From an uncultured Acidimicrobiia bacterium (GTDB lineage Bacteria > Actinomycetota > Acidimicrobiia > Acidimicrobiales > SZUA-35): a stretch of 64,000 bases of DNA. Shown here one piece after another: positions 7,007-39,006 of this stretch; within the stretch, counting starts at the first letter, position 1; each line of letters starts with the position of its first letter. Where the stretch lies: assembly GCA_965530755.1 (NCBI GenBank), contig CBESNA010000001.1, forward strand, positions 4,739 through 68,738, written 5' to 3'. Under the pieces are notes generated by a model. That model did not search any database. It saw nothing but the letters and a program-made list of their open reading frames with translations, and was not told where the DNA came from. Made by a program: the position numbers and the translations under genes.

Positions 7007-9025
7007 GTGGGAACCAACCTTTCAAGAACCAGGCGCGCTGCGGTGGCGACCGCGACCGCGCTCTTCTTGACGACGTTCGTCATGCTCTCGGGTGTCGGCG
7101 CTCAAGGCGACCAGCCCGCAGACGACACGTACGTCGACGACGCCATGTTCTACGACGAGGTCTGCGATCCGGCATTTCACCCGAACTGGGAGTCCGACCC
7201 GTATTGCAACCCGGCTCTCTACGACGATCCGACGTTTGCAGACGACCCGACGTCGCCATCGGTGTTGGCCCTCACCACTGGTCGAAGCGCTTCGATCCTC
7301 ACCGACCGAGGCGGCGTCGACACCGATATCGACCTCGCCGACCTCGCCTTCGACGACGCCGTTCGGGTCGGCGCCGCCCGGATGCTGCTCGCCATCGACG
7401 CTCTCGCCGAGCTCGGTGCCTTCGAACGATCCGACCCGCCGGGCGGGGCAACGCTGGTGCGAGACATTCGGGACACGATCCCGGCCGCCGGCCTCACAGA
7501 CGACGGCTACATCGAGGAACTCCGACGCTTCAACGACGACTTCGGACCGTTCCTCCTCCAGTTGCTGGACTCTGGCGCCGTCGTGAGCGACGACCTCTGG
7601 ATCGCCGCCGACGACCTCGGCATGGTGGCCCTCGCATTCGACGGGGTCGAAGCGGGCGCCACGGCTATTCTTCCGCCCGGCCCGTGGATCGTCGGAGTCG
7701 GAGATCTCCTGGTTCGGGGAGGCGCCACCGGGCCGCCATTGAGCCTTGCCGCCGACGCCGAGGCGATTCGCTCGATGCTGCAAGACCTCGCCGTCGATGA
7801 GGTCACTCCGTCCACCGTTGCCCCGACGCCTTCCGTGCCTACACCGGCGACCGCAGCCCTCCCCGACCCGGATCCCGCCGTCGCTGACTCGGCCGGATCC
7901 TTCCCCTACCTCTGGGCAGCACTGGCCGTTCTCGCCGCAATCGTCGGCGTCGGCGTCGCTGCCGCCACGAGCCGGCGGTCCGTTGAAGCCGGCGACGACG
8001 CAACAGCGCCGACTCGGACCTCGGCCACCGATCCTGAGCCGCCGTCCCACTCCGAAGAGAGCGATCGGCCGGCTCGCCAGGAGGCGCCGTCGGTGGCCGA
8101 CCTTCTCGATGCAAGCCGACGTATGACATCTGCGCTCGATGCGACGTCGATCGCGACCATTGCCTTGTCAGAGGCGTTGCGGCTTGCCGATGCCGAGGGC
8201 GGAATCATCGTTCGCCGAACCGACGACGGGCCCGATCCGATCAGCTGCGAACCTCCCATGTTGTTCAACTACGACCACGTCGCCGATGGATGCCTCCCGC
8301 GCATCATGGATACCGGCCGATCGATCACCTCCATCGCCCAGCACGAACCGCTGTTGGTCGAGGTCCCAATGGCCATGGCTGCCGTGCCGATCGTCGCTGC
8401 CGGGACCGTGACCGGAGCCATCCTCGTCGTCCGGGTGTCGGCCAGACCGTTCAGCCGCGATGAACTCGATGCCCTCGAGATGCTCGCTCCCCTGGCCGGC
8501 TCGGCATTCGCCGCGGCCGACACGCACGAGTCGGCAACCGAGTTGCGCGACGTCGAACCTCTGACCGGTCTGCAGAACCGCCGACGCCTCGACCGTGATC
8601 TGGCCGCCATCTCGCCAGACGACCAGGTCGCCTACGTGATGGTCGACATCGACCACTTCAAGAACTTCAACGACACCAATGGGCACGCCGCCGGTGATGA
8701 CGCCCTGCGGCGAGTCTCGGAGCTATTGGCGGCGTCGGTTCGCCCAATGGATCTCGTCTACCGGTACGGCGGCGAGGAGTTCTGTGTGCTCCTTCCCGGA
8801 GCTACTGCAGAGGCGGCCCTTGTCGTGGCAGAACGAGCGCGAGCCGCTGTCGAGAGCGCCGTCATCCCAGGGATGGAGAACCAGCCAGAAGGCCGGGTCA
8901 CGATCTCGGTCGGCGTGAGCGATTCGGCGTGGGGTTCACCGGCTGACTTAGTCGAGCGGGCCGACGCTGCGCTCTACGAGGCGAAGCGAAGCGGCCGCAA
9001 CCGCGTCAACCTCCACCAGCCCTGA
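7007..9025 (+). CDS. Membrane-anchored GAF-GGDEF diguanylate cyclase with an extracytoplasmic N-terminal domain
   Basis: GTG 7007 precedes a signal/anchor segment (AVATATALFLTTFVMLSGVGAQG). A second TM follows (FPYLWAALAVLAAIVGVGVAAA), then a GAF-like region and a GGDEF domain with active site GGEEF and I-site RPMD five residues upstream. The 5' part of ORF 6098..9025 is antisense to midA and was rejected. Confidence 0.85.
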   Translation: MGTNLSRTRRAAVATATALFLTTFVMLSGVGAQGDQPADDTYVDDAMFYDEVCDPAFHPNWESDPYCNPALYDDPTFADDPTSPSVLALTTGRSASILTDRGGVDTDIDLADLAFDDAVRVGAARMLLAIDALAELGAFERSDPPGGATLVRDIRDTIPAAGLTDDGYIEELRRFNDDFGPFLLQLLDSGAVVSDDLWIAADDLGMVALAFDGVEAGATAILPPGPWIVGVGDLLVRGGATGPPLSLAADAEAIRSMLQDLAVDEVTPSTVAPTPSVPTPATAALPDPDPAVADSAGSFPYLWAALAVLAAIVGVGVAAATSRRSVEAGDDATAPTRTSATDPEPPSHSEESDRPARQEAPSVADLLDASRRMTSALDATSIATIALSEALRLADAEGGIIVRRTDDGPDPISCEPPMLFNYDHVADGCLPRIMDTGRSITSIAQHEPLLVEVPMAMAAVPIVAAGTVTGAILVVRVSARPFSRDELDALEMLAPLAGSAFAAADTHESATELRDVEPLTGLQNRRRLDRDLAAISPDDQVAYVMVDIDHFKNFNDTNGHAAGDDALRRVSELLAASVRPMDLVYRYGGEEFCVLLPGATAEAALVVAERARAAVESAVIPGMENQPEGRVTISVGVSDSAWGSPADLVERADAALYEAKRSGRNRVNLHQP

Positions 9026-9031: not shown

Positions 9032-10558
9032 CTACGACAGACTGAAGTTGGTCATATTCGAGATCTCGCCGAGCAGCACCGAACCGGACAACAGGGTGAA
9101 GATCACGGTCAGGGCCAGTGCAGCCTGGAGGGTCGGTGTCATGGGGATCGGCGACTCGTCGCCGTCCGGCACCGGCATGAACCACATCTGCTTGGCGATC
9201 GCGAGGTAGTAGTAGGCCGCGATCACCGAGTTCACAGCGGCCACCAGGGCCAAGGCGATACCCCAGGAGTTGCCACCATCGGTGAGCACACGGAAGATCT
9301 CGAATTTGGCCCACCAGCCTCCGACCGGAGGAATGCCCGCCAAGCTGAAGAGGAACGCCGTCATCACTGCGGTGAGTCCCGGCGCGTAGTTGAACAGGCC
9401 GCCGTAGCTCGAGATCTCACCGGAGCGGGTCTTGCGGGCCACCGAGATCACGACGGCGAAAGCGCCGAGATTCATCGCGGCGTAGATCACGAGGTATGTG
9501 ACGATCGCGGAGGTCGCCTGCTCCGGTCGATCGCCGAACACAGCGAGCGGGGCCAGCATGTAGCCGGCCTGGGCGATGCCGGAGTAGGCCAACATCCTGA
9601 CGATGTTGGTCTGACGCAGGGCGATCAGGTTGCCAACCGTCATGGTCAGTGCACTGAGCACCCAGAGCAGTGGCTCGACGACATCGGCCCGACCGGGGAA
9701 GGCGTAGATCACGACGCTGACCAGCGCCACGAAACCTGCGGCCTTCGATGCGACGGCGAGGAACGCGGTGAGCGGAGTCGGGGCGCCCTCGTAGGTATCG
9801 GGTGCCCAGGTGTGAAACGGGACGGCCGAGACCTTGAAACCGAACCCGATGATCGTGAACACCACGGCGAGGGTGACGGCTGGCGCGCTTTCACCACCGG
9901 CGATCGCATCCCCGATGTCGGTGAGCTTCGTGCTGCCGGTCAGGCCGTAGAGCAGGGACATCCCGTAGAGCATGATTCCCGAGGCGAACACACCCATCAG
10001 CATGAACTTGAGGCCGGCCTCGTTCGACTTGAGGTCTCGCTTGCGCCAGGCGGCCATGAGGTACGCCGGGATGGAGACGAGCTCGATCGCAACGAAGATC
10101 GAGATGAGATCGCGGGCGGAGGTCATCACCAGCATGCCGACGATCGACGCCGAGATCAGTTGGTAGAACTCGCTGTCGTAGTAGTCACCCTCGAGCATGT
10201 AGTTCGACGAGAGCAGTACCACTACGTAGCCGGTGAGCAGGAACATCGCCTTCAGCACGAGGGCGTATTCGTCCACCACCCAGGCACCGTCGAACATGAC
10301 CCGCGGCAGCTGGTCGCCGTCGTTCCAAAGCGTGATGACGGGGATGAGCGCGATCAGGAACGTGAAGCTGGTGAGCGTCGGGATCAGTCGTCTGACTCGT
10401 TCGAGTCCGAGCAGGTCGACAACGGTGACGATCGCCCCGGTCAACAGCAAGAGCAGCTCGGGCGCAACCGCATGCCAATCGATGGCGGGTCGGTCGAACG
10501 GAACGACCTCGACCTGAGCCAGAGAGGCGATGATGTGAGCCGTGATGGCAGCGAACAT
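9032..10558 (-). CDS. nuoN: NADH-quinone oxidoreductase subunit N (cluster 1, EFG-less)
   Basis: 14-TM antiporter-like subunit (FKVSAVPFHTWAPDTYEGAPTP). Last gene of the cluster. Confidence 0.9.
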   Translation of the reverse strand: MFAAITAHIIASLAQVEVVPFDRPAIDWHAVAPELLLLLTGAIVTVVDLLGLERVRRLIPTLTSFTFLIALIPVITLWNDGDQLPRVMFDGAWVVDEYALVLKAMFLLTGYVVVLLSSNYMLEGDYYDSEFYQLISASIVGMLVMTSARDLISIFVAIELVSIPAYLMAAWRKRDLKSNEAGLKFMLMGVFASGIMLYGMSLLYGLTGSTKLTDIGDAIAGGESAPAVTLAVVFTIIGFGFKVSAVPFHTWAPDTYEGAPTPLTAFLAVASKAAGFVALVSVVIYAFPGRADVVEPLLWVLSALTMTVGNLIALRQTNIVRMLAYSGIAQAGYMLAPLAVFGDRPEQATSAIVTYLVIYAAMNLGAFAVVISVARKTRSGEISSYGGLFNYAPGLTAVMTAFLFSLAGIPPVGGWWAKFEIFRVLTDGGNSWGIALALVAAVNSVIAAYYYLAIAKQMWFMPVPDGDESPIPMTPTLQAALALTVIFTLLSGSVLLGEISNMTNFSLS

Positions 10559-10561
10559 TGG

Positions 10562-12115
10562 TTACTTTCCGAGAGCGGCGACGACGTCGGAGACTGCCGT
10601 GAGTGGACCGTCCATGACGTTGAACATCAGGCCGGGCACGAAGCCGAAGAGGACGATCAGCGCGAGCATCGGGGCCCACGCGACCCACTCGAAACTGGTC
10701 ATGTCGTGGATGTTGGGATCGTCGGCGAACTCTTCGGACGGTTCGCCGAAGGCAGTGCGCTGGAGCAGCCACAACAGGTAGGCGGCGGCGAGGACAGTGC
10801 CGAGAGCTGCGACCACCATGTAGAACCGGAACAGATTCACGTTGAGCCCCGGGGCCGGGCTGTAGGCGGCGAGGATGGCCGGGAATTCACCCCAGAAACC
10901 GGCGAGGCCCGGAAGGCCGAGCGAGGCCATCGTGGTGAAGCCCAAGATCCAGCCCATGCGTGGAGCCTGGATCAGCAGACCGCCGAGACGTTTGATCTCG
11001 AGGGTGTGGTAGCGCTCCTTCACCGAGCCGGCGATGAAGAACAACAAGCCGGTGATGAGGCCGTGCGCCACCATGCCAAACACTGCGGCCTGGAGACCGA
11101 ACGTGGTCAGCGTGGCGATGCCGAGCATCACGTACCCCATGTGGGCAACGGACGAGAAGGCGATCAATCGCTTCATGTCGGTTTGTGCCAGGCAACCGAG
11201 AGCGCCGTAAATGATGCCGATGACAGCAAGGCCACCGATGATCGGGGCCCACTCGACAGCCGCCTCGGGAAGGATCGGGATGGCGATACGAATGAAGCCG
11301 TAGGTGCCGAGCTTCAGCAGAACCGCAGCCAGGATCACCGAGCCCTGCGTGGGCGCCTGGGTGTGTGCGTCCGGCAGCCACGTGTGGAACGGGAACATGG
11401 GCACCTTGATGCCGAACCCGAGGAACATGCCTCCGAAGATCAACCACTGGGCCCGGGACGAGATGTCGCGACTGGCGACCTGCTCTGCCAATTGAGCCAT
11501 GTCGAAGGTCGAGGATCCGGTGAGCCAGTAGAGCGCGAGGAAGCTGACGAGCATCAGCGCAGAACCGAACAACGTGTAGAGGAAGAACTTGATCGACGCA
11601 TAGAGGCGATCGGGTCCGCCCCAGACACCGATCATGAAGTACATCGGGAGCAACACGACCTCGAAGAAGACGAAGAAGAGGATGAGGTCGCGGGCGACGA
11701 ACGATCCGAGCATGCCGGTGTGGAGCACCATGATCAGCATCAGGAACGCCTTCGGATTTCCGGGCTCCGGGATGTGATCCCAGCTGTAGATGATCACCAG
11801 CGGGACGACCAACAGTGTCAAAGCGATGAGCGGCAACGAGATGCCGTCGAGCGCTACGTGGTAGCGAATGTTGACGACCTCGATCCACGACTGGTTGATC
11901 GTGAGCTTCGGGGCCTGACCGGTGTCGTAGTCGAAATTGTCCGGCAGCATCAGCAACACGCCCACCACGGCGGAGGCGAGGCTGAAGCCGAGGGCAAGCA
12001 GCTTTTGTGCTTCCTCCATGGCTGCCGGCACGAGCATCATGATGGCCACCCCGACGAGGGGGAGGAACACCATCAGGCTGAGCCCGTTTTCTTGGAGGAA
12101 TGTGAGGTCTTCCAC
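10562..12115 (-). CDS. nuoM: NADH-quinone oxidoreductase subunit M (cluster 1)
   Basis: Antiporter-like motifs (FGIKVPMFPFHTWLPDAHTQAPT). GTG 12115 lies 13 nt after the nuoL stop. The ORF-track start at 12172 would overlap nuoL. Confidence 0.88.
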   Translation of the reverse strand: MEDLTFLQENGLSLMVFLPLVGVAIMMLVPAAMEEAQKLLALGFSLASAVVGVLLMLPDNFDYDTGQAPKLTINQSWIEVVNIRYHVALDGISLPLIALTLLVVPLVIIYSWDHIPEPGNPKAFLMLIMVLHTGMLGSFVARDLILFFVFFEVVLLPMYFMIGVWGGPDRLYASIKFFLYTLFGSALMLVSFLALYWLTGSSTFDMAQLAEQVASRDISSRAQWLIFGGMFLGFGIKVPMFPFHTWLPDAHTQAPTQGSVILAAVLLKLGTYGFIRIAIPILPEAAVEWAPIIGGLAVIGIIYGALGCLAQTDMKRLIAFSSVAHMGYVMLGIATLTTFGLQAAVFGMVAHGLITGLLFFIAGSVKERYHTLEIKRLGGLLIQAPRMGWILGFTTMASLGLPGLAGFWGEFPAILAAYSPAPGLNVNLFRFYMVVAALGTVLAAAYLLWLLQRTAFGEPSEEFADDPNIHDMTSFEWVAWAPMLALIVLFGFVPGLMFNVMDGPLTAVSDVVAALGK

Positions 12116-12128
12116 AGTTATCGCTTTC

Positions 12129-14372
12129 TCATACGGCGACGATGAACACGGCGGCCAACACTGCGGCCGCACCGAACATCAGGCTTGCGTACTGACGAAC
12201 TCGGCCGGACTGGACGTGGCGAAGAACTCCGCCGGAGGCCAATGCGGTGAGACCAGAACCATTGACGGTGCCGTCGATGGCGCCCTGGTCGATGAACCGG
12301 TAGACGAAGCGGCCGGCGATGACCGCCCCCTTCCCGGTGTAATTGATGACGTTGTCGATGACGTTCTGGTTGACCCAGTAAGCAGCCCGAGCCATCCAGC
12401 CCTTGGTGCTCTCGGCGACAACGCCTTCGTAGAAGTGGTCGAGGTAGTACTTTTCCACGAGCAGCGTGTGGAAGCCCCGGGCGTAGCGGTTGTTGTCACG
12501 CAGACCGCCGGTGACCTCGGTTGCCCGCGGATTCTTGGCGAAGAGCTTCGAGTAGTAGGTGTAGGTGACGAAAATCGCGAACAAGCCGATCACCGTCGCA
12601 AGGATGGCCATGGCAACGCTTGGTTCACCGTGGCTGATCACCGGGAAGACATTTCCGCCGCCCGGTTCGATCCAGCGCTCGAGGGTGAGTCCGATGCGGT
12701 CGCCGATGACCGGGAAGCCCTTCGGGATGTTCAAGAATCCGACGACGACGGCCAGGCCGGCAAGGACCTGAAGCGGGATCATCATACGGGGGCCCGGATC
12801 GTGCGGGTGATCGTGTCCGCGATACTCGCCGAAGAAGATGAGCATGATCGCCCGGGTCATGTAGGCGGCGGTGAGGGCCGCACCGATGAGGGCCATGATC
12901 AGCGGAATCGTGTAGTCGCCGTTGCCGCTGGTCCCGACGAGGATCTCGTCCTTCGACCAGAAGCCGGCCAGCGGGAAGATGCCGATGAGGGCACCGCTCG
13001 CGATCATGAAGATCACGAACGTCTTCGGCATCAGCTTGCGCAAGCCGCCCATCTCAGCCTTCATGTCGAAGCTGTGATGGCAGGCGTGGCTGAGTGCACC
13101 AGCACCGAGGAACAGACAGGCCTTGAAGATCGCGTGCGTGAAGAGGTGGAACATGCCGGCGGTCCAGGCGCCGACACCAAGAGCCAAGACCATGTAGCCG
13201 AGCTGACTGACCGTTGAATAGGCGAGCACCTTCTTGATGTCGTTCTGCACGAAGGCGAGCAGGCCACCGCCAACCACGGTGATCCCGCCGATGATGGCCA
13301 TCGCGTTGACCGAACTCCCCGGTATGGCGAGGCCTTCCCAGAACACTGGATAGAGACGGCCGATCATGTAGACACCGGCGACGACCATCGTTGCGGCATG
13401 GATGAGCGCCGAGACCGGCGTCGGGCCGGCCATCGCATCTGGCAGCCAGGTGTGGAGGACGAACTGACCGGACTTGGACATCACGGCTGCCATCAAACAA
13501 AGAGCGGCGACGGTGAGCGTGCCACTCCCGATGTCGCCGACGACGGCAGCGTGGTTGATGGTGCGAATGTCGAAGCTGTTGCCGGCGGCGAAGAAGAGAA
13601 TTGAGACACCAATGAGCAGCCCGATGTCGCCGACCCGGTTCGTGAGGAATGCCTTGAGGGCGGCATCGGAGTTCGGTTTCTCTTCCCACCAGTGGCCGAT
13701 CAGTGCAAACGAACAGACGCCCACGAGCTCCCAGCCGACGATCATCTGGAGGGTGCTGGCGCTCAGGACGAAGAAGAGCATCGAGGCGGTGAACAGCGAC
13801 AGGAAAGCGAAGTAGTGGACGTATCGTCGATCGCCGCCGACATAGTCGGTCGAGAAGATGTGCACCAGCATCGAGATGAAGGTCACCACGACGAGCAGGA
13901 GGACAGACTGGCCGTCGACCAAGGTGCCGATCGAGATGGGCTTCTCCGAGGCGCGGTCGTCGCAGTCGGTGTTCTGAGCATCAGAGCTGTCGAACCAGCA
14001 CCAGCTGTTGACCACGGCCTCGGGCTTGGCCTCGACTTCTGCTCCCGCTTCGGCGAAGGCCGCCTCTTGTACACCGACCAGATCGTCGCCGCTGGCGAAT
14101 TCGGTGATCAACACCGCTTCTTCCTCGCCGTGGTCTTCCTCTATGTAGCTGTCGCTGGCGTTGACCCACGCAGCAGCGGTGAGAATCGACAGCAGGAACG
14201 ACGCAACGACGGCGGTCAGCCCGATGAAGTGGACGTGTTTCCCCAGCCGCTTGCCGACGAACAGGGTCAGCACGAAGGAGGCAGCCATGATCGCGGGGAT
14301 CAGACCGGCCCAGTCGAAGAACCAGCTACTGACCTCGAAGGTCGGCGCGGCCGCGGCGGCGAGAAGATGCAT
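12129..14372 (-). CDS. nuoL: NADH-quinone oxidoreductase subunit L (cluster 1), with an acidic N-terminal loop insertion
   Basis: WLPDAMAGPTPVSALIHAATMV motif. 747 aa, with a C-terminal lateral-helix region. Confidence 0.9.
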   Translation of the reverse strand: MHLLAAAAAPTFEVSSWFFDWAGLIPAIMAASFVLTLFVGKRLGKHVHFIGLTAVVASFLLSILTAAAWVNASDSYIEEDHGEEEAVLITEFASGDDLVGVQEAAFAEAGAEVEAKPEAVVNSWCWFDSSDAQNTDCDDRASEKPISIGTLVDGQSVLLLVVVTFISMLVHIFSTDYVGGDRRYVHYFAFLSLFTASMLFFVLSASTLQMIVGWELVGVCSFALIGHWWEEKPNSDAALKAFLTNRVGDIGLLIGVSILFFAAGNSFDIRTINHAAVVGDIGSGTLTVAALCLMAAVMSKSGQFVLHTWLPDAMAGPTPVSALIHAATMVVAGVYMIGRLYPVFWEGLAIPGSSVNAMAIIGGITVVGGGLLAFVQNDIKKVLAYSTVSQLGYMVLALGVGAWTAGMFHLFTHAIFKACLFLGAGALSHACHHSFDMKAEMGGLRKLMPKTFVIFMIASGALIGIFPLAGFWSKDEILVGTSGNGDYTIPLIMALIGAALTAAYMTRAIMLIFFGEYRGHDHPHDPGPRMMIPLQVLAGLAVVVGFLNIPKGFPVIGDRIGLTLERWIEPGGGNVFPVISHGEPSVAMAILATVIGLFAIFVTYTYYSKLFAKNPRATEVTGGLRDNNRYARGFHTLLVEKYYLDHFYEGVVAESTKGWMARAAYWVNQNVIDNVINYTGKGAVIAGRFVYRFIDQGAIDGTVNGSGLTALASGGVLRHVQSGRVRQYASLMFGAAAVLAAVFIVAV

Positions 14373-14375
14373 GGA

Positions 14376-14675
14376 TCAGCCCTGGAGGAGGTTGGCTTCG
14401 GACACGTCGATGCTCCGACGGTTCCGGTAGATGAGCAGGACGATCGCAAGTCCGACACCGACCTCGGCGGCAGCCACTGCGATCACGAACAGTGCGAACA
14501 CCTGGCCTGGGATCGTGCCGTTGAAGGCGCCGAAGGCCACGAGGTTGATGTTGGCGGCGTTGAGGATGAGCTCGATCGACATGAGGACGAGCACGCCGTT
14601 CTTGCGGGTGAGGACGCCGTAGACACCGATACAGAAGAGCACAGCGGCGAAGAGAAGGAACTGATTCAGAAACAT
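14376..14675 (-). CDS. nuoK: NADH-quinone oxidoreductase subunit K (cluster 1)
   Basis: 99-aa 3-TM protein (MFLNQFLLFAAVLFCIGVYGVLTRKN...). ATG is at 14675. The longer ORF 14376..15176 is a read-through frame. Confidence 0.9.
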   Translation of the reverse strand: MFLNQFLLFAAVLFCIGVYGVLTRKNGVLVLMSIELILNAANINLVAFGAFNGTIPGQVFALFVIAVAAAEVGVGLAIVLLIYRNRRSIDVSEANLLQG

Positions 14676-14683
14676 GCCGACTC

Positions 14684-15193
14684 CTAATCCCGCCTGGCCA
14701 CGACGATGGCACCGATCAGCGCTGCGAGCAGTAGCAGCGAAATCGCTTCGAACGGGACGATGTAGGTACTGAAGATCGAATCTGCGACTTCTTGGGTGCG
14801 CTGCACCCGACGATCGGCCGGCAGCTTCTGGGTACCCCACTGGTCGACGACCGCGTAGGTCATCACGGCGAACATCACGACAGCGACGAGGCCACCGATC
14901 CACTTCTGTTCGTAGTCGAGGTTGTCCTCGTGGCCGATCTGGGCCCGGGTGAGCATGACGCCGAACAGCAACAGGACCATGATGGCGCCCACGTAGACGA
15001 GCAACTGGGTGGCAGCCGCGAATTCGGCGCCGAGGACGATGTAGGTCGCAGCGACGCTGACCAGCACCACCAGCAGATGGAGCGCAGCGTGGACCACGTT
15101 CTTCGTGGAGACCATCCGCAGTGCACTGACCACGGCCACAGCCGCGATCACGTAGAAGAAGGCGTTGGCCACCCACTCCTCGGTGTCGGTCAT
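14684..15193 (-). CDS. nuoJ: NADH-quinone oxidoreductase subunit J (cluster 1)
   Basis: Typical NuoJ N-terminus after ATG 15193 (MTDTEEWVANAFFYVIAAVAVVSALRMV). An alternative GTG at 15238 would make a GTGA overlap with the nuoI stop. Confidence 0.85.
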   Translation of the reverse strand: MTDTEEWVANAFFYVIAAVAVVSALRMVSTKNVVHAALHLLVVLVSVAATYIVLGAEFAAATQLLVYVGAIMVLLLFGVMLTRAQIGHEDNLDYEQKWIGGLVAVVMFAVMTYAVVDQWGTQKLPADRRVQRTQEVADSIFSTYIVPFEAISLLLLAALIGAIVVARRD

Positions 15194-15234
15194 CACCGAT
15201 GCTTCGGCCGCGAACGTGGCCAACGATGCTCCGA

Positions 15235-15735
15235 TCACCGAGGCACCTGCTTTGCCTTCACTTCGGAGCCAGCTTCGTAGGCCTCGAAGTCGGGCACGGT
15301 TTCCATCCACTGGCCGAGCCGGCTCTTGTCGTGGAGGAGATCAGCGATCTTCGGTTCGGAGTATTCGTACTCTGGGCTCCAGAACAGGGCCTCGAACGGG
15401 CACACCTCGACGCAGATCCCGCAGTACATGCAGAGGCTGTAGTCGATGTCGAACCGGTCGAGCTTGTTGACCGAGCGTGGCTTGCCGCCGGCTCGACGGG
15501 GTGGCGCGAGGGTTTTGTGTCCCTCGATGTAGATGCACCAATCGGGGCACTCGCGGGCGCACAACATGCACGACGTGCAGTTCTCTTCGTGGAGGGCGAT
15601 GACGCCGCGGGCTCGGGGTGCGGGCTCTTCCTTTTCGTGCGGGTACTGCACGGTCTCGGCGCCGTGGACGACGGTCTTGACGACCTCTTTGAAGGTCAGA
15701 CCGAGCCCTTTGACCACACCTGGTACGAGTGGCAT
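15235..15735 (-). CDS. nuoI: NADH-quinone oxidoreductase subunit I (cluster 1), 2x[4Fe-4S]
   Basis: CTSCMLCARECP and CMYCGICVEVCP motifs. Confidence 0.92.
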   Translation of the reverse strand: MPLVPGVVKGLGLTFKEVVKTVVHGAETVQYPHEKEEPAPRARGVIALHEENCTSCMLCARECPDWCIYIEGHKTLAPPRRAGGKPRSVNKLDRFDIDYSLCMYCGICVEVCPFEALFWSPEYEYSEPKIADLLHDKSRLGQWMETVPDFEAYEAGSEVKAKQVPR

Positions 15736-15844
15736 CAGTCTCCCCTTCCGTCCGTCATGCGGCCGACAGTCTGGCCCAGCCAGGCGACGATCACACAGTT
15801 CGCTCTGACACAGTTCGCGTCACCGGAAGGGTTGCGGCCGGCCA

Positions 15845-16894
15845 TCAGAGCCACACCTTCAGCACACCGGTGATCGCGATATTGACGAGGGAGATGGGAA
15901 TGAGCACCTTCCAGGCGAACTTCTGGAGCTGATCTTCACGGAATCGGGGGTAGGTGAACCGCACCCAGTAGATGACGAAGGTCAACACCAGCATCTTGGT
16001 GACCATGACCAACGGTCCGATCACGTTGAACCAGTTCGAGTCGTACTCGAGGCCGAGCAGATCAGTGACGAATGGCGGGATGCTCCAGCCTCCGAGGAAG
16101 AGCACGGAAGCCAAGAAGGCGAAGATCGCGGCCGTGGCGAACTCGCCGATGAAGAACATCAGGAAGCGCATGCCCGAGTACTCCGTCATGTAGCCCGAGA
16201 CCAGCTCGGACTCGGCGATCGGCATGTCGAACGGCACCTGCGTGAGCTCGGCTTGCACTGCGACCATGAAGATCAGGAACCCGACGAACTGCGTGAGGAT
16301 GAACGGGAGTCCCAGTCCGCCCCAACCGAAGATCTCACCATTGATCTGGGCGTAGACGATCTGCTGCAGATTCAGCGTGCCGGCCTGGATGACAACGCCG
16401 ACGACCGCCAGCACCATCGGCAACTCGTAGGCAATGAGCTGTCCGGCGGCGCGCAGGCCACCGAGCAGCGAGTACTTCGAGGCGCTCGCCCAGCCGGCCA
16501 TGAGGATGCCGATCACCGAGATCGAGCTGACGGCAAGAGCAAAGAACACGCCCGTGTCGAGGTCGGTGAAGACGGCGTTCGGGCCGAACGGCACGACCAC
16601 CGCCAGCAAGAACGTGCTCAACAGCACGATGTAGGGCGCCATGGCGAACACGTTGCGGTCGGCCTTCGCAGGGAAGATGTCTTCCTTCTGCAACGACTTG
16701 CCCACTTCGGCCAGGAGCTGGAGCGAGCCGTACGGCCCGGCTTCCATCGGGCCCAGACGGCTCTGCATGAACGAGACCATCTTGAACAAGTACAGGTACA
16801 CGGTCAGGCCGGCGGGAAGCAGCACGACGAGCAGCACCATGACGCTCTTGAGGATGGTCTCCATCCACCACGACGTTTCGATCGCAAGCATCAT
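15845..16894 (-). CDS. nuoH: NADH-quinone oxidoreductase subunit H (cluster 1)
   Basis: NuoH/ND1 motifs (MQSRLGPMEAGPYGSLQLLAEVGKSLQKEDIFP). 8-TM protein. Confidence 0.92.
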   Translation of the reverse strand: MMLAIETSWWMETILKSVMVLLVVLLPAGLTVYLYLFKMVSFMQSRLGPMEAGPYGSLQLLAEVGKSLQKEDIFPAKADRNVFAMAPYIVLLSTFLLAVVVPFGPNAVFTDLDTGVFFALAVSSISVIGILMAGWASASKYSLLGGLRAAGQLIAYELPMVLAVVGVVIQAGTLNLQQIVYAQINGEIFGWGGLGLPFILTQFVGFLIFMVAVQAELTQVPFDMPIAESELVSGYMTEYSGMRFLMFFIGEFATAAIFAFLASVLFLGGWSIPPFVTDLLGLEYDSNWFNVIGPLVMVTKMLVLTFVIYWVRFTYPRFREDQLQKFAWKVLIPISLVNIAITGVLKVWL

Positions 16895-16915
16895 CGGGCC
16901 ACCACTCCTGACGAA

Positions 16916-17037
16916 TCGGCTGGGAGTTGTGAGCCCCAGCGAGCAACTCCGTTAGTGAGCGAAGCGAACGGCGTGCCTTCGGCTGGGAGTTGTGAGCCCC
17001 AGCGAGCAACTCCGTTAGTGAGCGAAGCGAACGGCGT
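16916..17037. repeat. Tandem direct repeat, 2 x 59 bp with a 63-bp period, filling the nuoD-nuoH spacer of cluster 1
   Basis: TCGGCTGGGAGTTGTGAGCCCCAGCGAGCAACTCCGTTAGTGAGCGAAGCGAACGGCGT occurs at 16916-16974 and again, identical by eye, at 16979-17037. Each unit holds two overlapping alternative inverted repeats: GGAGTTG-N14-CAACTCC and GCTGGG-N10-CCCAGC. Confidence 0.9.
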
Positions 17038-18209
17038 CATCGGTCAATGTCTCCGAGGATGAAGTAGAGCGAGGCGAGGATGGTGATCACATCCGGGACG
17101 TAGGTGCCCTTGAGCAGCCAGGGGGCGATGCTCATGTTGTTGAAGCTGGCCGAGCGGATCTTCACCCGGAACGGCTCGAGGCCGCCCTTCGACACGACGT
17201 AGTAACCCATCTCACCGAGCGGGTTTTCGGTGGCGACGTAGGCCTCGCCCTCTGGCACTTTGATGATGCGGGGCACCTTGGCCATGATCGGACCGGACGG
17301 GATCGTGTCGAGCAACTGCTCGACGATCGAAACACTCTCACGAACCTCTTGCAGCCGAACCCACGATCGGGCATAGGCGTCGCCGTCCGGGTGAGTCCAG
17401 ACCTTCCAATCGACCTTGTCCCATGCCAGACCGCACGGATTGTCGCGACGCAGGTCCCAATCGACGCCCGACCCGCGGATGTTGGCACCGCTCAACCCGT
17501 AGCTGAGCCCGACGTCTGCCGGGATGACACCGATGCCTCGGGTACGAGCGGCGAAGATCTCGTTGCCGAACAGCAGATCCTCGATCAGGTCGCAGAAGTC
17601 CGAGATCTTGGTCAGGCTCTGCTTGGTCTCGGCGATCCACCCGGCCGGGAAATCATCCTTGACCCCGCCGATGCGATCGAAGTTGGGATGGAAGCGGCCG
17701 CCCGTCGCTGACTCGATCTGATTGAGCACGTGCTCGCGGTCGCGGAACGCGTAGAACACGGGGGTGACAGCACCGAGCTGGACTCCGAGATCGCCGAGGA
17801 ACAGCGTGAGGTGCGCGATGCGGCCGAGCTCGAACAGAATCGTCCGAATGTGCTGGGCCCGAGGCGGCGCCTCTATGTCCATGAGCTGCTCTGCGGCGAG
17901 GATGAAGGGCACCTCGTTGCAGAAGCTTCCGAGCCAGTCGATCCGGTTCACCAGCGTGGTGACCTGAGGGTAGGTCCGCACCTCCGTGAGCTTCTCGTAG
18001 CCCCGGTGCATGTAACCCATGATCGGCTCTGCCTCGATCACCTGCTCACCGTCGAGCCGGGCGACGATGCGGAGCGTGCCGTGGGTCGCCGGGTGCTGTG
18101 GACCGATGTTGAGGGTCATGCCCTCCGCTTCGAGTTCGAGATTGACTCGGGCGTCGGCAGCCTGGGCGGCCACGTATGCCAGCTGACGGCGATCGGACAC
18201 TGCGGTCAT
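17037..18209 (-). CDS. nuoD: NADH-quinone oxidoreductase subunit D (cluster 1)
   Basis: NIGPQHPATHGTLRIV motif. ATG 18209 has GGAG 7 nt upstream. The ORF-track ATG at 18278 has no spaced RBS and overlaps nuoC by 11 nt, but remains possible. Confidence 0.88.
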   Translation of the reverse strand: MTAVSDRRQLAYVAAQAADARVNLELEAEGMTLNIGPQHPATHGTLRIVARLDGEQVIEAEPIMGYMHRGYEKLTEVRTYPQVTTLVNRIDWLGSFCNEVPFILAAEQLMDIEAPPRAQHIRTILFELGRIAHLTLFLGDLGVQLGAVTPVFYAFRDREHVLNQIESATGGRFHPNFDRIGGVKDDFPAGWIAETKQSLTKISDFCDLIEDLLFGNEIFAARTRGIGVIPADVGLSYGLSGANIRGSGVDWDLRRDNPCGLAWDKVDWKVWTHPDGDAYARSWVRLQEVRESVSIVEQLLDTIPSGPIMAKVPRIIKVPEGEAYVATENPLGEMGYYVVSKGGLEPFRVKIRSASFNNMSIAPWLLKGTYVPDVITILASLYFILGDIDR

Positions 18210-18267
18210 GACGCGGCTCCGCTGTCGTGGGCGTTCCCGCCGGATCCGAGCAGAATCATCAGTTGCG

Positions 18268-18981
18268 TCATGACGCATCCTCGGGGTTGGTCGTACTCGG
18301 CGCAGCGCTGTCCGCGAGTTCCGGCGTCGGGGGAGCTTCGTCAGCGAGCGGTGGCATTGGCTCGACGTCGACGATGCCGGGCCATGGCTTCACCAAACGA
18401 GCCAACAGGGGGAAGTCTTTCCGCATCGGATGACCCTCGAAGTCGCCGGGCAGGTACAGAGGGCGGAGACCCGGGTGACCGGTGAAGGTGATGCCGAACA
18501 TCTCCCACACCTCACGCTCGTGCCAGTTGGCACCGGGGTAGTGATCGGTCCAGGTGGGCGCAGCCATGTCGTCGCCGACGTCGGCCTTCAACGTGACGCC
18601 GATCCCAGTCGCGAGGTTGGCAACACGCGCAATGATCTGGAACCGAGTGTCGCCGCCGGCGTAGCCCGTGGTCATCGGCTCGATTTCGGATGCCTCGGAC
18701 TCATCCAAGACCGTGTCGACAGCAGCATCGAGGCTGCGACCGTAGGGAGAGGGCATCCAGTCGATCGCCGACACGAAGTCGAAGAAACGGAACCGCTGCC
18801 GGTCGCGCAAGTACGCCGCCGTGTCGGCAAACGCCTCGATCTTCACCCGGATCCAGAGATCGACCCCAGGAACCAGATGATGCTCGACGAGGGAGTCGCC
18901 GAGCTCGGCCACCATCGCCTCGAGCAGGGCGGAACGAGCTTCGTCGACCACGACATCCGTGGTCTCCACGATGTCGGTCAT
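18268..18981 (-). CDS. nuoC: NADH-quinone oxidoreductase subunit C (cluster 1), with a Pro/Ala-rich C-terminal tail
   Basis: NuoC core (FDFVSAIDW, HYPGANWHEREVWEMFGITFTGHP). Confidence 0.9.
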   Translation of the reverse strand: MTDIVETTDVVVDEARSALLEAMVAELGDSLVEHHLVPGVDLWIRVKIEAFADTAAYLRDRQRFRFFDFVSAIDWMPSPYGRSLDAAVDTVLDESEASEIEPMTTGYAGGDTRFQIIARVANLATGIGVTLKADVGDDMAAPTWTDHYPGANWHEREVWEMFGITFTGHPGLRPLYLPGDFEGHPMRKDFPLLARLVKPWPGIVDVEPMPPLADEAPPTPELADSAAPSTTNPEDAS

Positions 18982-19056
18982 GCGCCGATCTCTCTGCTGT
19001 CGAAGATCATCATGCGCCGATCTCTCTGCTGTCGAAGATCATCATGCGCCGATCTC
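18979..19056. repeat. Tandem direct repeat, 32-bp unit x about 2.4, at the nuoB/nuoC junction of cluster 1
   Basis: CATGCGCCGATCTCTCTGCTGTCGAAGATCAT occurs at 18979-19010 and 19011-19042, and its first 14 nt recur at 19043-19056. On the minus strand this reiterates the nuoB 3' end GAGATCGGCGCATGA three times. Confidence 0.9.
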
Positions 19057-19545
19057 CATGGGATCGCCCTTCCACTTCTCGACCATGTCCTCGTTCTGGA
19101 TGATGTCCTGGAGCAGCACGATGCCCTCCAGCAGCGCCTCGGGGCGGGGCGGGCAGCCAGGGACGTACACATCGACGGGAATGATCTGGTCGATGCCCTT
19201 GGTGACCGAGTAACTATCCCAATAGGGGCCGCCGCAGTTCGCACACGACCCCATCGAGATCACATACTTGGGCTCGGGCATCTGCTCGTACAGACGGCGA
19301 ATGGCCGGAGCCATCTTGTCGGTGACCGTCCCGGACACGACGACGAGGTCGGCCTGACGTGGGCTGGCGGGCAGCGGAATCACGCCGAGGCGCATCACGT
19401 CGTAGCGCGGCGATCCGAACGCTGCACCCATCTCGATGGCGCAGCACGCCAGGCCCCACTGGTACACCCAGAGGCTGTACTTGCGACTTGTGTTCAGCAA
19501 TGTGGTGAGTGCCTTGGGCATCTTGCCCGAGTCAACGAGACCCAT
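19042..19545 (-). CDS. nuoB: NADH-quinone oxidoreductase subunit B (cluster 1)
   Basis: N2-cluster ligands are present ([25 protein letters not shown]). Confidence 0.92.
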
Positions 19546-19596
19546 ACCTGGTTCCCCGAATCAATGGTGAGCGTGTGTTGGCCGGACCGTGAACGG

Positions 19597-19962
19597 TCAA
19601 ACCCAGCGAAGGACACCCTTGCGCCAGGCGTACGCCAGACCAAGAGCAAGAATGAAGATGAAGATCACCATCTCCACCAATCCGAAGAGGCCGTACGCCT
19701 CGAGGCGGGTCGCCCACGGAAAGATGAAGACGGCCTCGACGTCGAACATGACGAAGAGCAGAGCAAAGATGTAGTAGCGGATCTGACTCTGGGACCATCC
19801 GGTGCCCACAGGATCGACGCCACTCTCATAGTTCTCGATCTTGGCTTCGGTCGGACGATTCGGGCGTATGAAACTGGAAAGCCCGATGAACGTGCCGACG
19901 AGCAGCACGGCGATGCCGCCGAAGAGAGCGACGATGGCGTAGTCACGGAGGAAGTCCGACAC
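19597..19962 (-). CDS. nuoA: NADH-quinone oxidoreductase subunit A (cluster 1)
   Basis: 3-TM NuoA with KIENYESG and FDVEAVFIFPW. A GTG 19962 start gives a typical 121 aa, but the start is uncertain. The ORF-track start at 20049 is a TTG with no RBS, 3 nt after the glgB stop. Confidence 0.8.
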   Translation of the reverse strand: MSDFLRDYAIVALFGGIAVLLVGTFIGLSSFIRPNRPTEAKIENYESGVDPVGTGWSQSQIRYYIFALLFVMFDVEAVFIFPWATRLEAYGLFGLVEMVIFIFILALGLAYAWRKGVLRWV

Positions 19963-20052
19963 GGGGAGCGATGCTAGCCCTCTGGAGAGGCATCGGCCAA
20001 GATCTTCAGCGGTTTCTCGTATCCGACGTCGCCTGGGCGCCGACCCCAATCG

Positions 20053-21954
20053 TCAGCGGGTGGGAGCGAGAGCGATCACAGCGAGCGGTGGCAGGTCGAC
20101 GACCAACGACTGCTCGCGGCCGTGACTCCCCGTATCGTCGCTGCTGAGCGTCGTCGCGGCGAATGCTCCGCTCCCTCCGAAGTCCGGATCGTCGCTGTTC
20201 AACAGCACTTCCCACTGGCCCGATACGGGCACACCGACTCGGTAGCCGGACCGAGGCACCGGAGTGAGGTTCTGGACGCACAACACGGGTCGGTCGTCGT
20301 CGAGGCCGAGTCGCAGCCACACGAGCACCGAATTCGCGCCGTCATCGAGCACCACCCACTCGAAACCAGACGGATCGAGCTCGTTGCGGTGCATCGCCGG
20401 CTCGTTGCGGTAAACGTCGTTGAGCTTTGCAACCCAGCGTTGGACGCCGAGATGGTTCGGCAGCTCCAGTTGCGCCCAGGCCAGCGGATGGTCGTGGTTC
20501 CACTCCGGTCCTTGCCCGAACTCCTGGCCCATGAACAGCAGCTTCTTACCCGGATTCAGCCACTGGTTTCCGAACAACACACGCAGATTGGCGAACTGTT
20601 GCCACTCGTCGCCCGGCATCTTGGCCAGGATCGAGCCCTTGCCGTGCACGACCTCGTCATGACTGAGCGGAAGCACGTACTGCTCGGTGAACGCGTAGAC
20701 GCCACGGAACGTGATCTCGTTGTGGTGGAACCGGCGGTGGATGGGATCGCGCTCGAGATACTCGAGCGTGTCGTGCATCCAGCCCATGTCCCACTTGTAG
20801 TGGAACCCAAGACCGCCTTCATCGGCCGGCCGGGTGACACCGGGAAATGCCGTGGACTCCTCGGCGATGGTGATGACGTCCGGATGTTCGACACCGATCG
20901 CGGTGTTGAGATCTCGAAGGAAGTGAATCGCCTCGAGATTCTCCCGACCGCCGTACTGGTTGGGCACCCACGCACCCGACTCCCGGGAGTAGTCGCGGTA
21001 CAGCATCGAGGCGACGGCATCGACCCGGATCCCGTCGATGTGATAGCGCTCGATCCAGTGGAGAGCACTGCTAATCAGGAAGGACCGCACCTCGTGCCGG
21101 CCGAAGTTGAAGATGTAGCTCTTCCAGTCTGGGTGCCAGCCCTCCTTGGGATCGCCGTGTTCGTAGAGGTGGGATCCGTCGAAACTGCCGAGAGCGAAAT
21201 CGTCTGACGGGAAGTGCGACGGCACCCAATCGAGGATCACGCCGATCCCGCGCTCGTGGAGCTTGTCGACGAAGCCCATGAAGTCCGTCGGAAGGCCGTA
21301 GCGCGCGGTCGGAGCGAAGTAGCCGGTGGTCTGATAGCCCCAGGACCCGTAGAACGGGTGCTCCATGATGGGCAGCAACTCGACGTGGGTGAAGCCGCAC
21401 GCGTCGAGATGATCGGCCAACGGCTCCGCCAACTCCGCCCAGGTCAGGCTGCGGTATGCCTCGGCGTGGCGCCAGGACCCGACGTGCATCTCGTAGATCG
21501 AGATCGGTCGATCATGGCCCTGGTGCTCGGATCGAGCGTCGATCCAGTCGCTGTCTGACCAATCGTAGGAGAGGTCGGTGACGACCGACGCCGTCGCCGG
21601 TGGGAGCTCGGCGGCGAACGCCAACGGGTCGGCCCGCTCCACGTCGTAGCCGGCCTTGGTGGTGATCCGGAACTTGTATCGATCACCGACGGTGGCATCG
21701 GAGGCCACGCCGGCCCAGATGCCCGAGTCGCCCTGCGGAACGAGTTGGTACTTGTCGTTGACTTCCCAATTCGAGAAGTCACCGACAGCCCAGACCCGAG
21801 TTGCCTCGGGCGCCCAAACCGCGAAGCGGCGGCCCGGCTGGTCTGCGACGGTCAGGGCCTGTGCGCCGAGCACATCGAACAACCGACGGTGGCCGCCCTC
21901 GTTGAACAGCCAACGATCGCCCTCGGGGATCAGATCATTGAGGTCGAGAGTCAT
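20053..21954 (-). CDS. glgB: 1,4-alpha-glucan branching enzyme (GH13)
   Basis: GH13 branching-enzyme motifs (IDGIRVDAVASMLY, GFHYKWDMGWMHD, LPLSHDEVVHGKGS). Confidence 0.9.
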   Translation of the reverse strand: MTLDLNDLIPEGDRWLFNEGGHRRLFDVLGAQALTVADQPGRRFAVWAPEATRVWAVGDFSNWEVNDKYQLVPQGDSGIWAGVASDATVGDRYKFRITTKAGYDVERADPLAFAAELPPATASVVTDLSYDWSDSDWIDARSEHQGHDRPISIYEMHVGSWRHAEAYRSLTWAELAEPLADHLDACGFTHVELLPIMEHPFYGSWGYQTTGYFAPTARYGLPTDFMGFVDKLHERGIGVILDWVPSHFPSDDFALGSFDGSHLYEHGDPKEGWHPDWKSYIFNFGRHEVRSFLISSALHWIERYHIDGIRVDAVASMLYRDYSRESGAWVPNQYGGRENLEAIHFLRDLNTAIGVEHPDVITIAEESTAFPGVTRPADEGGLGFHYKWDMGWMHDTLEYLERDPIHRRFHHNEITFRGVYAFTEQYVLPLSHDEVVHGKGSILAKMPGDEWQQFANLRVLFGNQWLNPGKKLLFMGQEFGQGPEWNHDHPLAWAQLELPNHLGVQRWVAKLNDVYRNEPAMHRNELDPSGFEWVVLDDGANSVLVWLRLGLDDDRPVLCVQNLTPVPRSGYRVGVPVSGQWEVLLNSDDPDFGGSGAFAATTLSSDDTGSHGREQSLVVDLPPLAVIALAPTR

Positions 21955-22847
21955 GCCGAGCCGTCCTCGGGCAGGCGGATGTCGAGGCCGAAGAGCTCCG
22001 AGAATTGCTCGCGATATTCAACGTCGTCGGCGATGGCACCGAGTGCGACCCAATCCTCGTCCGGCACGGTGTCGAGTGCAGTCGTGAGGGCGTTGGCCCC
22101 CCAGCCGCAGGTCCAGCGAAGTTTGGGTTCGTCCGTGGTGACGGCTTCGTAGATCGTCTCGGCGACGACCGATGGGTGCCCGGGATCGGCGAGCCCAACC
22201 ATGTAGAAGTCGAGGAGGCGCTGGTAGTGGCGGTCATAGGCCCCGCTCTCGTTCGGGGCGTCGACGTTCTTGGCCATGATGGCCGTCTTGATGACGCCGG
22301 GCTCGACGATCGCCACTCTGATCCCGAACGGCGCCACCTCGTGTGCCAGTTCCTGACTCATCCCTTCGGCCGCCCACTTCGATGCAACGTACGGCGCCTG
22401 GGCGGAGGCGGCGAAGCGGCCGATGACCGAAGTGACGTTGACGATCGACCCGCTCCCCTGCTCACGCATGTGAGGAAGCACCGCCTGGATGCAGCGGACC
22501 AGACCATGCAGATTGACGTCCATGACCTCGGCGAAACGGTCGATGGCGCATTCCTCGACGGTGGCGTTCCCACCGACTCCGGCGTTGTTGACCAACACGT
22601 CGATTCGGCCGGCCTCGGCGTGGATCTGCGCCACGGCTGCGTTCACCGAGTCGGTGTCGGTGACGTCGCACACGACTGGATGGACCGTGACGCCGGCGGC
22701 CTGGGCCATGGCGTCGAGCTTGGCCGACTTGTCGAGCGAGCGCATCGTGCCGTAGACGGTCCAGCCCTTGGCCGCGAGGTCGACAGCGGCGCTCCGACCG
22801 ATTCCCGAGTTGCTTCCGGTGACGATGGCGACCAGTGATTCAGACAT
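21951..22847 (-). CDS. Short-chain dehydrogenase/reductase (classical SDR)
   Basis: TGSNSGIGRS cofactor motif, NNAG, and catalytic YVASK. ATGA stop/start overlap with glgB. Confidence 0.85.
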   Translation of the reverse strand: MSESLVAIVTGSNSGIGRSAAVDLAAKGWTVYGTMRSLDKSAKLDAMAQAAGVTVHPVVCDVTDTDSVNAAVAQIHAEAGRIDVLVNNAGVGGNATVEECAIDRFAEVMDVNLHGLVRCIQAVLPHMREQGSGSIVNVTSVIGRFAASAQAPYVASKWAAEGMSQELAHEVAPFGIRVAIVEPGVIKTAIMAKNVDAPNESGAYDRHYQRLLDFYMVGLADPGHPSVVAETIYEAVTTDEPKLRWTCGWGANALTTALDTVPDEDWVALGAIADDVEYREQFSELFGLDIRLPEDGSA

Positions 22848-31679: not shown

Positions 31680-31680
31680 C

Positions 31681-31986
31681 TCAGCCCCTCATCTCGGCGA
31701 AATCATCGGCACTGGCATCCGGCTGACGGCGCATCAGCGCCACGACGATCGACAGCCCGACGACCACCTCGGCGGCAGCGACGACGAGCACGAAGAAGAC
31801 TGCGGTCTGGCCGGCGAGATCACCGAGCGCTCCGGAGAACGCGACGAAACTGATGTTGACGGCGTTGAGCATCAGCTCGACACACATGAACATGACGAGT
31901 GGATTGCGCCTGGTCATGAGGCCGAAGGCCCCGAGGGAGAACAGCACGGCGCTCAGCACCAGATACCACGTTGCGGTGACTTCCAC
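31681..31986 (-). CDS. nuoK: NADH-quinone oxidoreductase subunit K (cluster 2)
   Basis: 101-aa 3-TM protein ([28 protein letters not shown]). Confidence 0.9.
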
Positions 31987-31994
31987 GGCTACTC

Positions 31995-39003: not shown

Positions 39004-39006
39004 GGG

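Follow-up and report, generated by a model that had tools for sequence, protein, structure and literature searches.

How does a complex I obtain electrons when its NADH-oxidising module (N-module) is missing? For bacterial enzymes of this kind the donor question has been open since 2011, and it is raised by a stretch of 64,000 nucleotides from an uncultured Acidimicrobiia bacterium of the order Acidimicrobiales (contig CBESNA010000001.1 of assembly GCA_965530755.1, forward-strand positions 4,739 to 68,738; hereafter the window, with a G+C content of 62–68%). Members of this class abound in soils, activated sludge, lakes and oceans. The window carries a canonical nuoA–N operon (cluster 1) and, downstream on the same strand, a second cluster of 11 nuo genes without nuoE, nuoF and nuoG (cluster 2; gene and protein names carry the number of their cluster). 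We consider it probable, at roughly three chances in four, that cluster 2 encodes a working complex I-like proton pump of 11 subunits that has no N-module and belongs to the actinobacterial second-nuo lineage, assisted by a methyltransferase and supplied by an electron donor that is encoded elsewhere.

Gene content and integrity of cluster 2

Gene calls were based on NCBIfam and Pfam profile scans of the window, and bit scores are quoted against the cut-off of the respective model (Table 1). On the minus strand, from 19962 to 9032, the scans identified nuoA-B-C-D-H-I-J-K-L-M-N in this order. No NuoE, NuoF or NuoG was detected between nuoD2 and nuoH2, which are separated by a 142-bp spacer (17036–16895) containing a perfect 63-bp tandem duplication (1.9 copies, 16916–17037). 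Both the missing subunits and the repeat-filled spacer had been described in the original prediction, which was made from the letters of this DNA. Its claim of a full second set of membrane-arm and quinone-module (Q-module) genes, with the ligands of iron-sulfur cluster N2 and of NuoI intact, was likewise upheld by the profile scans and the cysteine positions. NuoB2 has the N2 ligands Cys34, Cys35, Cys101 and Cys131, including the tandem cysteines typical of N2, and NuoI2 has two CxxCxxCxxxCP motifs (Cys53/56/59/63 and Cys102/105/108/112). nuoA2 was recognised by NCBIfam NF005839 and Pfam PF00507, which match from about residue 34 of its open reading frame (ORF). The start of nuoD2 was placed at M24 of a 413-aa ORF because homologues measure 390 aa, and nuoM2 starts with GTG at 12115, 13 nt past the nuoL2 stop.

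The pump motifs were legible in NuoL2, NuoM2 and NuoN2 (Glu in transmembrane helix (TM) 5, Lys in TM7, Lys/His in TM8 and Lys/Glu in TM12), except that the TM12 lysine of NuoN2 was not placed. NuoL2 carries the TM5 Glu, TM7 Lys, TM8 His and TM12 Lys motifs together with the long C-terminal helix. In addition, both membrane Glu residues of NuoK2 and the Asp/Glu pair of NuoA2 are retained, and the motif PFDxxxAExEL is legible in NuoH2. A separate observation concerns residues ~70–145 of NuoL2: ahead of the conserved N-terminal domain, ~75 acidic, low-complexity residues are inserted, two cysteines among them; this part is poorly conserved in relatives, and tblastn breaks NuoL2 into two segments there. 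A role of NuoD2 as a group 4 hydrogenase subunit was excluded by the missing NiFe cysteine ligands, its C-terminus (...SLYFILGDIDR) being without the Cys pair; its matches to Mbh (135 bits) and formate hydrogenlyase (FHL, 124 bits) are also far under those to complex I.

Relatives of NuoD2 were found in 584 stretches in a scan with one genome per species, and the best 80 loci, every one from Acidimicrobiia, were analysed. NuoD2 is 96% identical to proteins of metagenome-assembled genomes (MAGs) of uncultured Acidimicrobiales/Acidimicrobiaceae. The order A2-B2-C2-D2-H2-I2-J2-K2-L2-M2-N2 was seen in 80/80 loci, scored only as far as each contig extends. The D2–H2 distance in relatives is usually −4 to +20 bp, and tblastn gave no nuoE, nuoF or nuoG match at any of the 80 loci. 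Furthermore, the ratio of nonsynonymous to synonymous substitutions (dN/dS), computed against four relatives, was 0.02–0.3 for all 11 genes, values that are rough because dS is near saturation. Ratios above 1 for nuoM2 against L003 and L004 were discarded as an alignment or cross-hit artefact. Decay of the cluster, an outcome that the original prediction had named as telling against it, was not seen in these ratios. Cluster 2 is under strong purifying selection and is not decaying.

The paralogues of the two clusters are 31–46% identical; those of NuoC align over a 43-residue stretch alone (51%), and those of NuoB were left out of the comparison. Among solved structures, NuoH2 is nearest to cyanobacterial NdhA (240 bits), followed by M. 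smegmatis (198), E. coli (196) and Thermus (180), whereas NuoH1 is nearest to M. smegmatis (334 bits), followed by Thermus (271) and NdhA (233). Similarly, the nearest solved relatives of NuoD2 are Thermus (333 bits), NdhH (298) and M. smegmatis (245), and those of NuoD1 are mitochondrial (451 bits) and M. smegmatis (441). Because of the low paralogue identity and the differing nearest solved relatives, cluster 2 is judged to be an ancient divergence from cluster 1 and no recent copy. The tandem was counted across 60 informative loci, those with upstream sequence of 7.5 kb or more; in 35 of them nuoN1 lies 0.4–7.4 kb upstream on the same strand, so the nuo14-then-nuo11 tandem is ancestral in Acidimicrobiia.

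Quinone site of NuoD2 and the linked methyltransferase gene

Quinone-site residues were numbered after Thermus Nqo4, to which NuoD2 aligns without gaps in the relevant regions. In this alignment, His43, Trp92, Gln144, Val151 and Tyr382 of NuoD2 take the positions of H38, Y87, D139, F146 and D401, so that His38 is kept and the other four residues are changed. The canonical triad His38/Tyr87/Asp139 consequently reads His/Trp/Gln. Trp was found at the Tyr87 position in 80/80 loci, and the signature of the clade is H/W/Q/V(I)/Y. For comparison, NuoD1 shows H/Y/D/M/D and the NuoD of Candidatus (Ca.) Actinomarina H/W/E/M/D, and the modal signature HYDFD occurred in 43 of 104 full-length representatives of NuoD diversity. 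In a crude neighbour-joining (NJ) tree (BLOSUM distances, midpoint root, unlabelled taxa), used only to group Trp-type and canonical sequences, the Trp-type NuoDs (the Acidimicrobiia clade, Actinomarina and orphan nuoDs) stood apart from the canonical clade. Since Y87, F146 and D401 have been termed a signature of quinone reactivity (PMC4758237), caution is warranted on the acceptor chemistry of cluster 2.

The orphan Trp-type nuoD genes (L084–L087) lie in an actinobacterial-looking housekeeping region with panC, nadB, folE-folK and ftsH. In two of the three distinct contexts examined (L086 and L087), the orphan stands beside a PF02636 methyltransferase gene. These genes may correspond to the nuoD2 that stands apart from the second cluster in Streptomyces-like actinomycetes.

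A PF02636 gene is also associated with cluster 2 (Table 1). Its product matches the PDB entries 4f3n (9e-13) and 1zkd (1.4e-8), both COG1565/DUF185 proteins, and 5ztz (9e-8), a Dictyostelium NDUFAF7 homologue, and the GxGxG motif for binding S-adenosylmethionine (SAM) is present (VIDLGSGPGG). Among the 55 relatives with sufficient downstream sequence, 43 have a PF02636 gene downstream of nuoN2 on the same strand, within ~140 bp in 36 of these, and in Ca. Actinomarina it directly follows nuoN. In the window, the methyltransferase gene is split from nuoN2 by a GGDEF gene, from which it diverges across ~45 bp. Judged by gene order, the methyltransferase gene is a conserved 12th gene of the nuo11 operon. 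The extent originally given to the system, 9032–22847, holds the 11 nuo genes and leaves this 12th gene (6961–5960) outside.

Human NDUFAF7 dimethylates NDUFS2 at Arg85, a residue ~7 Å from cluster N2 that corresponds to Thr64 of Thermus Nqo4 (PMC3829151). At this position NuoD2 has Arg (Arg69, in GYMHRGYEK) in 80/80 loci, whereas NuoD1 (39007–40362) has Thr. Because of this difference, only the second complex offers the linked methyltransferase a plausible target, and we infer that it would act on Arg69 of NuoD2 and not on NuoD1.

Known relatives, electron donor and competing explanations

A second nuo cluster without an N-module has already been published, and the cluster of the window belongs to that lineage. 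In Ca. Actinomarinales, of the same class, two neighbouring nuo clusters were described, one of them without nuoEFG (López-Pérez et al. 2020, PMC7771536), and a two-cluster layout with an NDUFAF7 gene after nuoN was also reported (Bulzu et al. 2021, bioRxiv 10.1101/2021.02.01.429150). These acidimicrobial clusters share with cluster 2 the 11-gene order without nuoEFG, the near-tandem position with a full nuoA–N, the PF02636 gene after nuoN and Trp at the Tyr87 position, with NuoD 57% identical. In contrast, between the operons they have heliorhodopsin and iron uptake genes, where the window has dusB, a short-chain dehydrogenase/reductase (SDR) gene and glgB; their NuoD has Glu at position 139, which is Gln in NuoD2, and keeps D401; and here the methyltransferase gene is displaced by the GGDEF gene and the operon contains repeats like mycobacterial interspersed repetitive units (MIRUs). 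In line with other second nuo clusters of actinobacteria, cluster 2 resides in the same genome as nuoA–N and, as in other Acidimicrobiia, close by on the same strand, and has a PF02636 gene downstream of nuoN, although the GGDEF gene intervenes.

Streptomyces likewise has a second nuo cluster, which forms a transcribed operon (PMC3765725, PMC8388888). Likened by its published description, Streptomyces nuo2 (nuoA2, B2, H2–N2; nuoD2 elsewhere) is also a second cluster without an N-module beside nuoA–N, but it has no nuoC and its nuoD is detached, whereas all 11 genes are contiguous here. Complex I enzymes of 11 subunits have been reported in actinobacteria (PMC3144371). The NUO11 enzymes of Bacillus cereus, Desulfitobacterium and Chlorobi (Moparthi & Hägerhäll 2011; Willemin et al. 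2024) resemble cluster 2 in operon architecture, in having no N-module and in that ferredoxin is the suspected donor. Cluster 2 has the contiguous 11 genes of a NUO11 operon with no nuoE/F/G among them, and differs from a canonical Nuo14, where the N-module is encoded with the complex. The strict definition of NUO11, however, refers to an organism without N-module genes anywhere (PMC4758237), as is the case for those organisms, and nuoE/F/G are present in cluster 1. Moreover, the 366-aa representative P0196, of the Bacillus-type NuoD model length, keeps HYDFD, and NuoD2 does not reach the threshold of that model, NF008974 (412/522).

Cyanobacterial and chloroplast NDH-1, a ferredoxin:plastoquinone oxidoreductase, is likewise an 11-subunit core without an N-module; its NdhA is the best solved relative of NuoH2 and its NdhH the second-best match of NuoD2. 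Unlike in NDH-1, ferredoxin-binding NdhS/V/O and oxygenic-specific subunits are not linked to cluster 2, and NdhH keeps Tyr87 and Asp139 whereas NuoD2 does not. The photosynthetic NDH-1 models also stayed under their cut-offs (NdhH 328/583, ndhI 58/302).

As far as the literature was searched, there is no earlier description of a Trp/Gln quinone site shared by the whole clade, of Arg in NuoD2 against Thr in NuoD1, of how widely the methyltransferase gene is linked or of the relay mini-ORF repeats presented below. The Tyr87-to-Trp site and the linked methyltransferase bear on the Q-site and the near-N2 arginine of complex I generally. In addition, streamlined relatives of 1.1 Mb keep both nuo clusters (PMC7771536); therefore, non-redundant functions are implied.

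In the mechanism that we propose, NuoB/C/D/I as Q-module and NuoA/H/J/K/L/M/N as membrane arm would form a proton pump. A soluble low-potential carrier encoded elsewhere would deliver electrons at NuoI2, and these would pass through N6a/N6b and N2 to menaquinone at the remodelled site, driving proton translocation. The methyltransferase would modify Arg69 of NuoD2 near N2 during assembly, as NDUFAF7 does with Arg85 of NDUFS2. The most likely carrier would be ferredoxin reduced by 2-oxoacid:ferredoxin oxidoreductases. Ferredoxin is our favoured guess because of the analogy to NDH-1 and NUO11, the affinity of NuoH2 to NdhA and the frequency of 2-oxoglutarate:ferredoxin oxidoreductase in the class, whose members commonly encode this enzyme and not 2-oxoglutarate dehydrogenase (PMC12008989).

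Several points weigh against this scheme. No ferredoxin, NdhS-like or FpoF-like gene was found within the 64 kb of the window or as a conserved neighbour of the cluster, and the Q-module of cluster 2 could, in principle, accept the NuoEFG of the operon just upstream. Ordinary quinone reduction is an assumption, given that Trp and Gln have taken the place of Tyr87 and Asp139, and arginine methylation of a bacterial NuoD is a proposal made by analogy to the human enzyme.

A more far-reaching reading is that cluster 2 represents a distinct enzyme class, combining replaced proton donors (Trp; Gln/Glu), dependence on a dedicated NDUFAF7-type Arg methyltransferase for NuoD2 close to N2, a non-NADH donor and a non-canonical acceptor or reverse operation. 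We hold this combination to be possible but doubtful. If true, NDUFS2-type arginine methylation would take place in free-living bacteria, outside the mitochondrial lineage.

A different way to supply the complex would be for the 11 proteins to borrow NuoE/F/G from the adjacent operon, which would yield two NADH-dependent isozymes with differing quinone sites or pumping. The operons stand in tandem in 35/60 informative loci and in Ca. Actinomarinales, as would suit such borrowing, and the Streptomyces second cluster, without even nuoC, suggests that subunits may be shared. However, the Q-module subunits are only 31–39% identical to their cluster 1 paralogues over most of their length, and related 11-subunit enzymes work in organisms without any nuoEFG (PMC3144371, PMC11238625). 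A shared N-module is thus unlikely in our estimate, although it ranks ahead of the alternatives that follow.

For the orthologous cluster of Ca. Actinomarinales, which is ≤ 35% identical to M. mazei Fpo, oxidation of F420H2 was proposed, and those genomes have F420 biosynthesis (PMC7771536). Applied to cluster 2, an unlinked FpoF/FqoF-type subunit would oxidise F420H2 and feed an Fpo/Fqo-like dehydrogenase. Against this, every NCBIfam Fpo model scored far under its cut-off and below the Nuo models (FpoD 322/600, FpoH 256/475, FpoL 353/1050, FpoK 116/145, FpoI 48/180, FpoC 52/220 and FpoJ 38/110), and an FrhB/FpoF-like or FpoO gene was neither found in the 64-kb window nor seen as a conserved neighbour of the cluster. 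We regard F420H2 as an improbable donor.

Just as improbable, in our view, is a change at the other end of the chain, where the loss of Tyr87 and Asp139 could mean another acceptor or a flow from menaquinol to ferredoxin driven by the proton-motive force. The fixation of H/W/Q/V(I)/Y across the clade, set beside a canonical HYDFD in 43 of the 104 representatives, is consistent with this idea, as is the quinone-reactivity signature assigned to Y87, F146 and D401 (PMC4758237). Nevertheless, the N2 tandem cysteines, His38, the quinone-tunnel and E-channel motifs of NuoH and the pump residues are all kept, and none of the genes linked to the cluster encodes an alternative acceptor. A menaquinone-reducing proton pump supplied by a donor encoded elsewhere remains the reading that we prefer.

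Flanking genes and intercistronic repeats

The features of cluster 2 and its surroundings are collected in Table 1.

Table 1. Coordinates (window numbering) and annotation of cluster 2, its neighbours and its repeats.
Feature	Coordinates	Strand	Remarks
nuoA2	19597..19962	-	121 aa; likely GTG start 19962; ORF reaches TTG 20049
nuoB2	19042..19545	-	167 aa; cluster N2 carrier; NF005012 222 bits vs cut-off 116
nuoC2	18268..18981	-	237 aa; Pro/Ala-rich C-terminal tail; PF00329 105.6 bits
nuoD2	17037..18209	-	390 aa
nuoH2	15845..16894	-	349 aa; PF00146 334 bits
nuoI2	15235..15735	-	166 aa; two [4Fe-4S] motifs
nuoJ2	14684..15193	-	169 aa; NF005168; start taken from ORF translation
nuoK2	14376..14675	-	99 aa; NF004320 119.8 bits vs cut-off 57
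nuoL2	12129..14372	-	747 aa; TIGR01974 524 bits vs cut-off 407
nuoM2	10562..12115	-	517 aa; TIGR01972 543 bits
nuoN2	9032..10558	-	508 aa; TIGR01770 377 bits vs cut-off 333
NDUFAF7/MidA-family (PF02636, COG1565) putative protein-arginine methyltransferase gene	5960..6961	-	Pfam 47 bits vs cut-off 23
GAF-GGDEF diguanylate cyclase gene	7007..9025	+	signal-peptide-like N-terminus; outside nuo system
glgB	20053..21954	-	NF003811 911 bits vs cut-off 741; co-oriented lineage-specific neighbour
SDR gene	21951..22847	-	co-oriented lineage-specific neighbour
Canonical nuoA–N operon (cluster 1, with nuoE/F/G)	~25907..42017	-	upstream tandem partner
Relay mini-ORF, 49 codons	16891..17040	-	spans nuoD2–nuoH2 spacer
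32-bp perfect tandem repeat, 2.5 copies	18978..19056	-	nuoB2/nuoC2 junction; Tandem Repeats Finder (TRF)

Upstream of nuoA2, the SDR gene and glgB overlap by ATGA on the same strand, and 90 bp separate the glgB stop (20053) from the GTG at 19962, the likely start of nuoA2. Both details agree with the original prediction, which had put the latter distance at 90 bp at most, but the coupling of cluster 2 to these genes that it proposed was not supported. The SDR gene and glgB occur together between nuoN1 and nuoA2 in the nearest relatives only (L001 and L003–L006), with partial sets in L002 (glgB only) and L009 (SDR only) and neither gene in L043. dusB also sits in this gap, with SDR/glgB, in the nearest relatives only, and distant relatives have other genes there or nearly none (419–884 bp). 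Clustering of the gap ORFs of 35 loci revealed no universal accessory or electron-input gene; the contents are clade-specific, including threonine dehydratase/GATase, STAS, dusB and small membrane proteins. Because the gap contents differ by clade, the SDR gene and glgB are a recent flank insertion, that is, chance neighbours without conserved functional coupling, and their adjacency should not be read as functional in annotation. It is very improbable that SDR, glgB and the nuo genes work as a unit in which the SDR is the entry point for NAD(P)H, despite their co-orientation, the ATGA overlap and the 90-bp gap, given that the two genes are absent or replaced outside the nearest relatives and that SDR enzymes have no iron-sulfur or flavin cofactor for single-electron transfer to NuoI.

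On the other side, the GGDEF gene runs towards nuoN2, and 6 bp separate the two stop codons. It lies between nuoN2 and the methyltransferase gene here and in the closest relative (L001) only, and is a lineage-specific recent insertion. A 975-aa plus-strand ORF from 6098 was rejected as an over-call, its first ~300 codons being an antisense shadow of the methyltransferase gene; the true start is probably the GTG at 7007. The 'GGDEF' matches obtained by tblastn in L002–L009 were also an antisense shadow of the methyltransferase gene.

The spacer between nuoD2 and nuoH2 is spanned by a 49-codon mini-ORF that overlaps both neighbours, its ATG with the TGA of nuoD2 and its TGA with the ATG of nuoH2. 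The 32-bp repeat at the nuoB2/nuoC2 junction encodes two identical 11-codon mini-ORFs chained by ATGA overlaps. In L001, the 96%-identical relative, the D2–H2 insert is absent and the B2–C2 array is longer and contains an assembly gap. A MIRU is a variable intercistronic tandem repeat in an operon, with small ORFs that overlap the flanking stop and start codons. The elements here are likewise intra-operon tandem repeats (32 and 63 bp) with small ORFs overlapping the flanking stop and start codons, and their presence and copy number vary between close relatives. They differ from MIRUs in having no sequence similarity to them, in occurring in a different order of Actinomycetota and in having been seen at nuo junctions only. 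Such repeats would keep translational coupling through the relay mini-ORFs.

An Rfam scan of the cluster gave two sub-threshold chance matches and nothing in the repeat spacers, and the whole nuoD2–nuoH2 spacer folded no more stably than shuffled sequence (z = 0.08), whereas single repeat units of some relatives fold well (z = −2.9 and −3.5). A promoter and terminator scan of 8700–26000 was uninformative, as the counts were no higher than in shuffled sequence.

Related junction elements were seen at D2–H2 (~11170–11620) in L003, L004, L008, L030, L043, L056 and L059, with further elements in L013, L019 and L054, at B2–C2 in L001 and at ~4860 in L076; unrelated junction duplications also occur among relatives. 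One type consists of the motif TTCGCTTCGCTCAC followed by a hairpin of 10–11 bp with compensatory changes, and another of a 49-bp unit repeated three times, each unit closed by GACCGATGA. Several of these arrays contain assembly gaps, one copy lies at an L1–M1 junction of the canonical operon, and no Rfam family was matched.

The canonical nuoA–N operon opens a respiratory super-region on one strand (25907–57069). Past it follow the genes of a bc-type complex (43043–47107), whose products have cytochrome c, Rieske and cytochrome b domains, and the haem biosynthesis genes hemL, hemB, hemD, hemC and hemA (51753–57069). Imperfect 21-bp tandem repeats (80–81% matches) also occur within the canonical operon, at 26860–26901 in nuoN1 and at 41008–41055 in the nuoB1 region.

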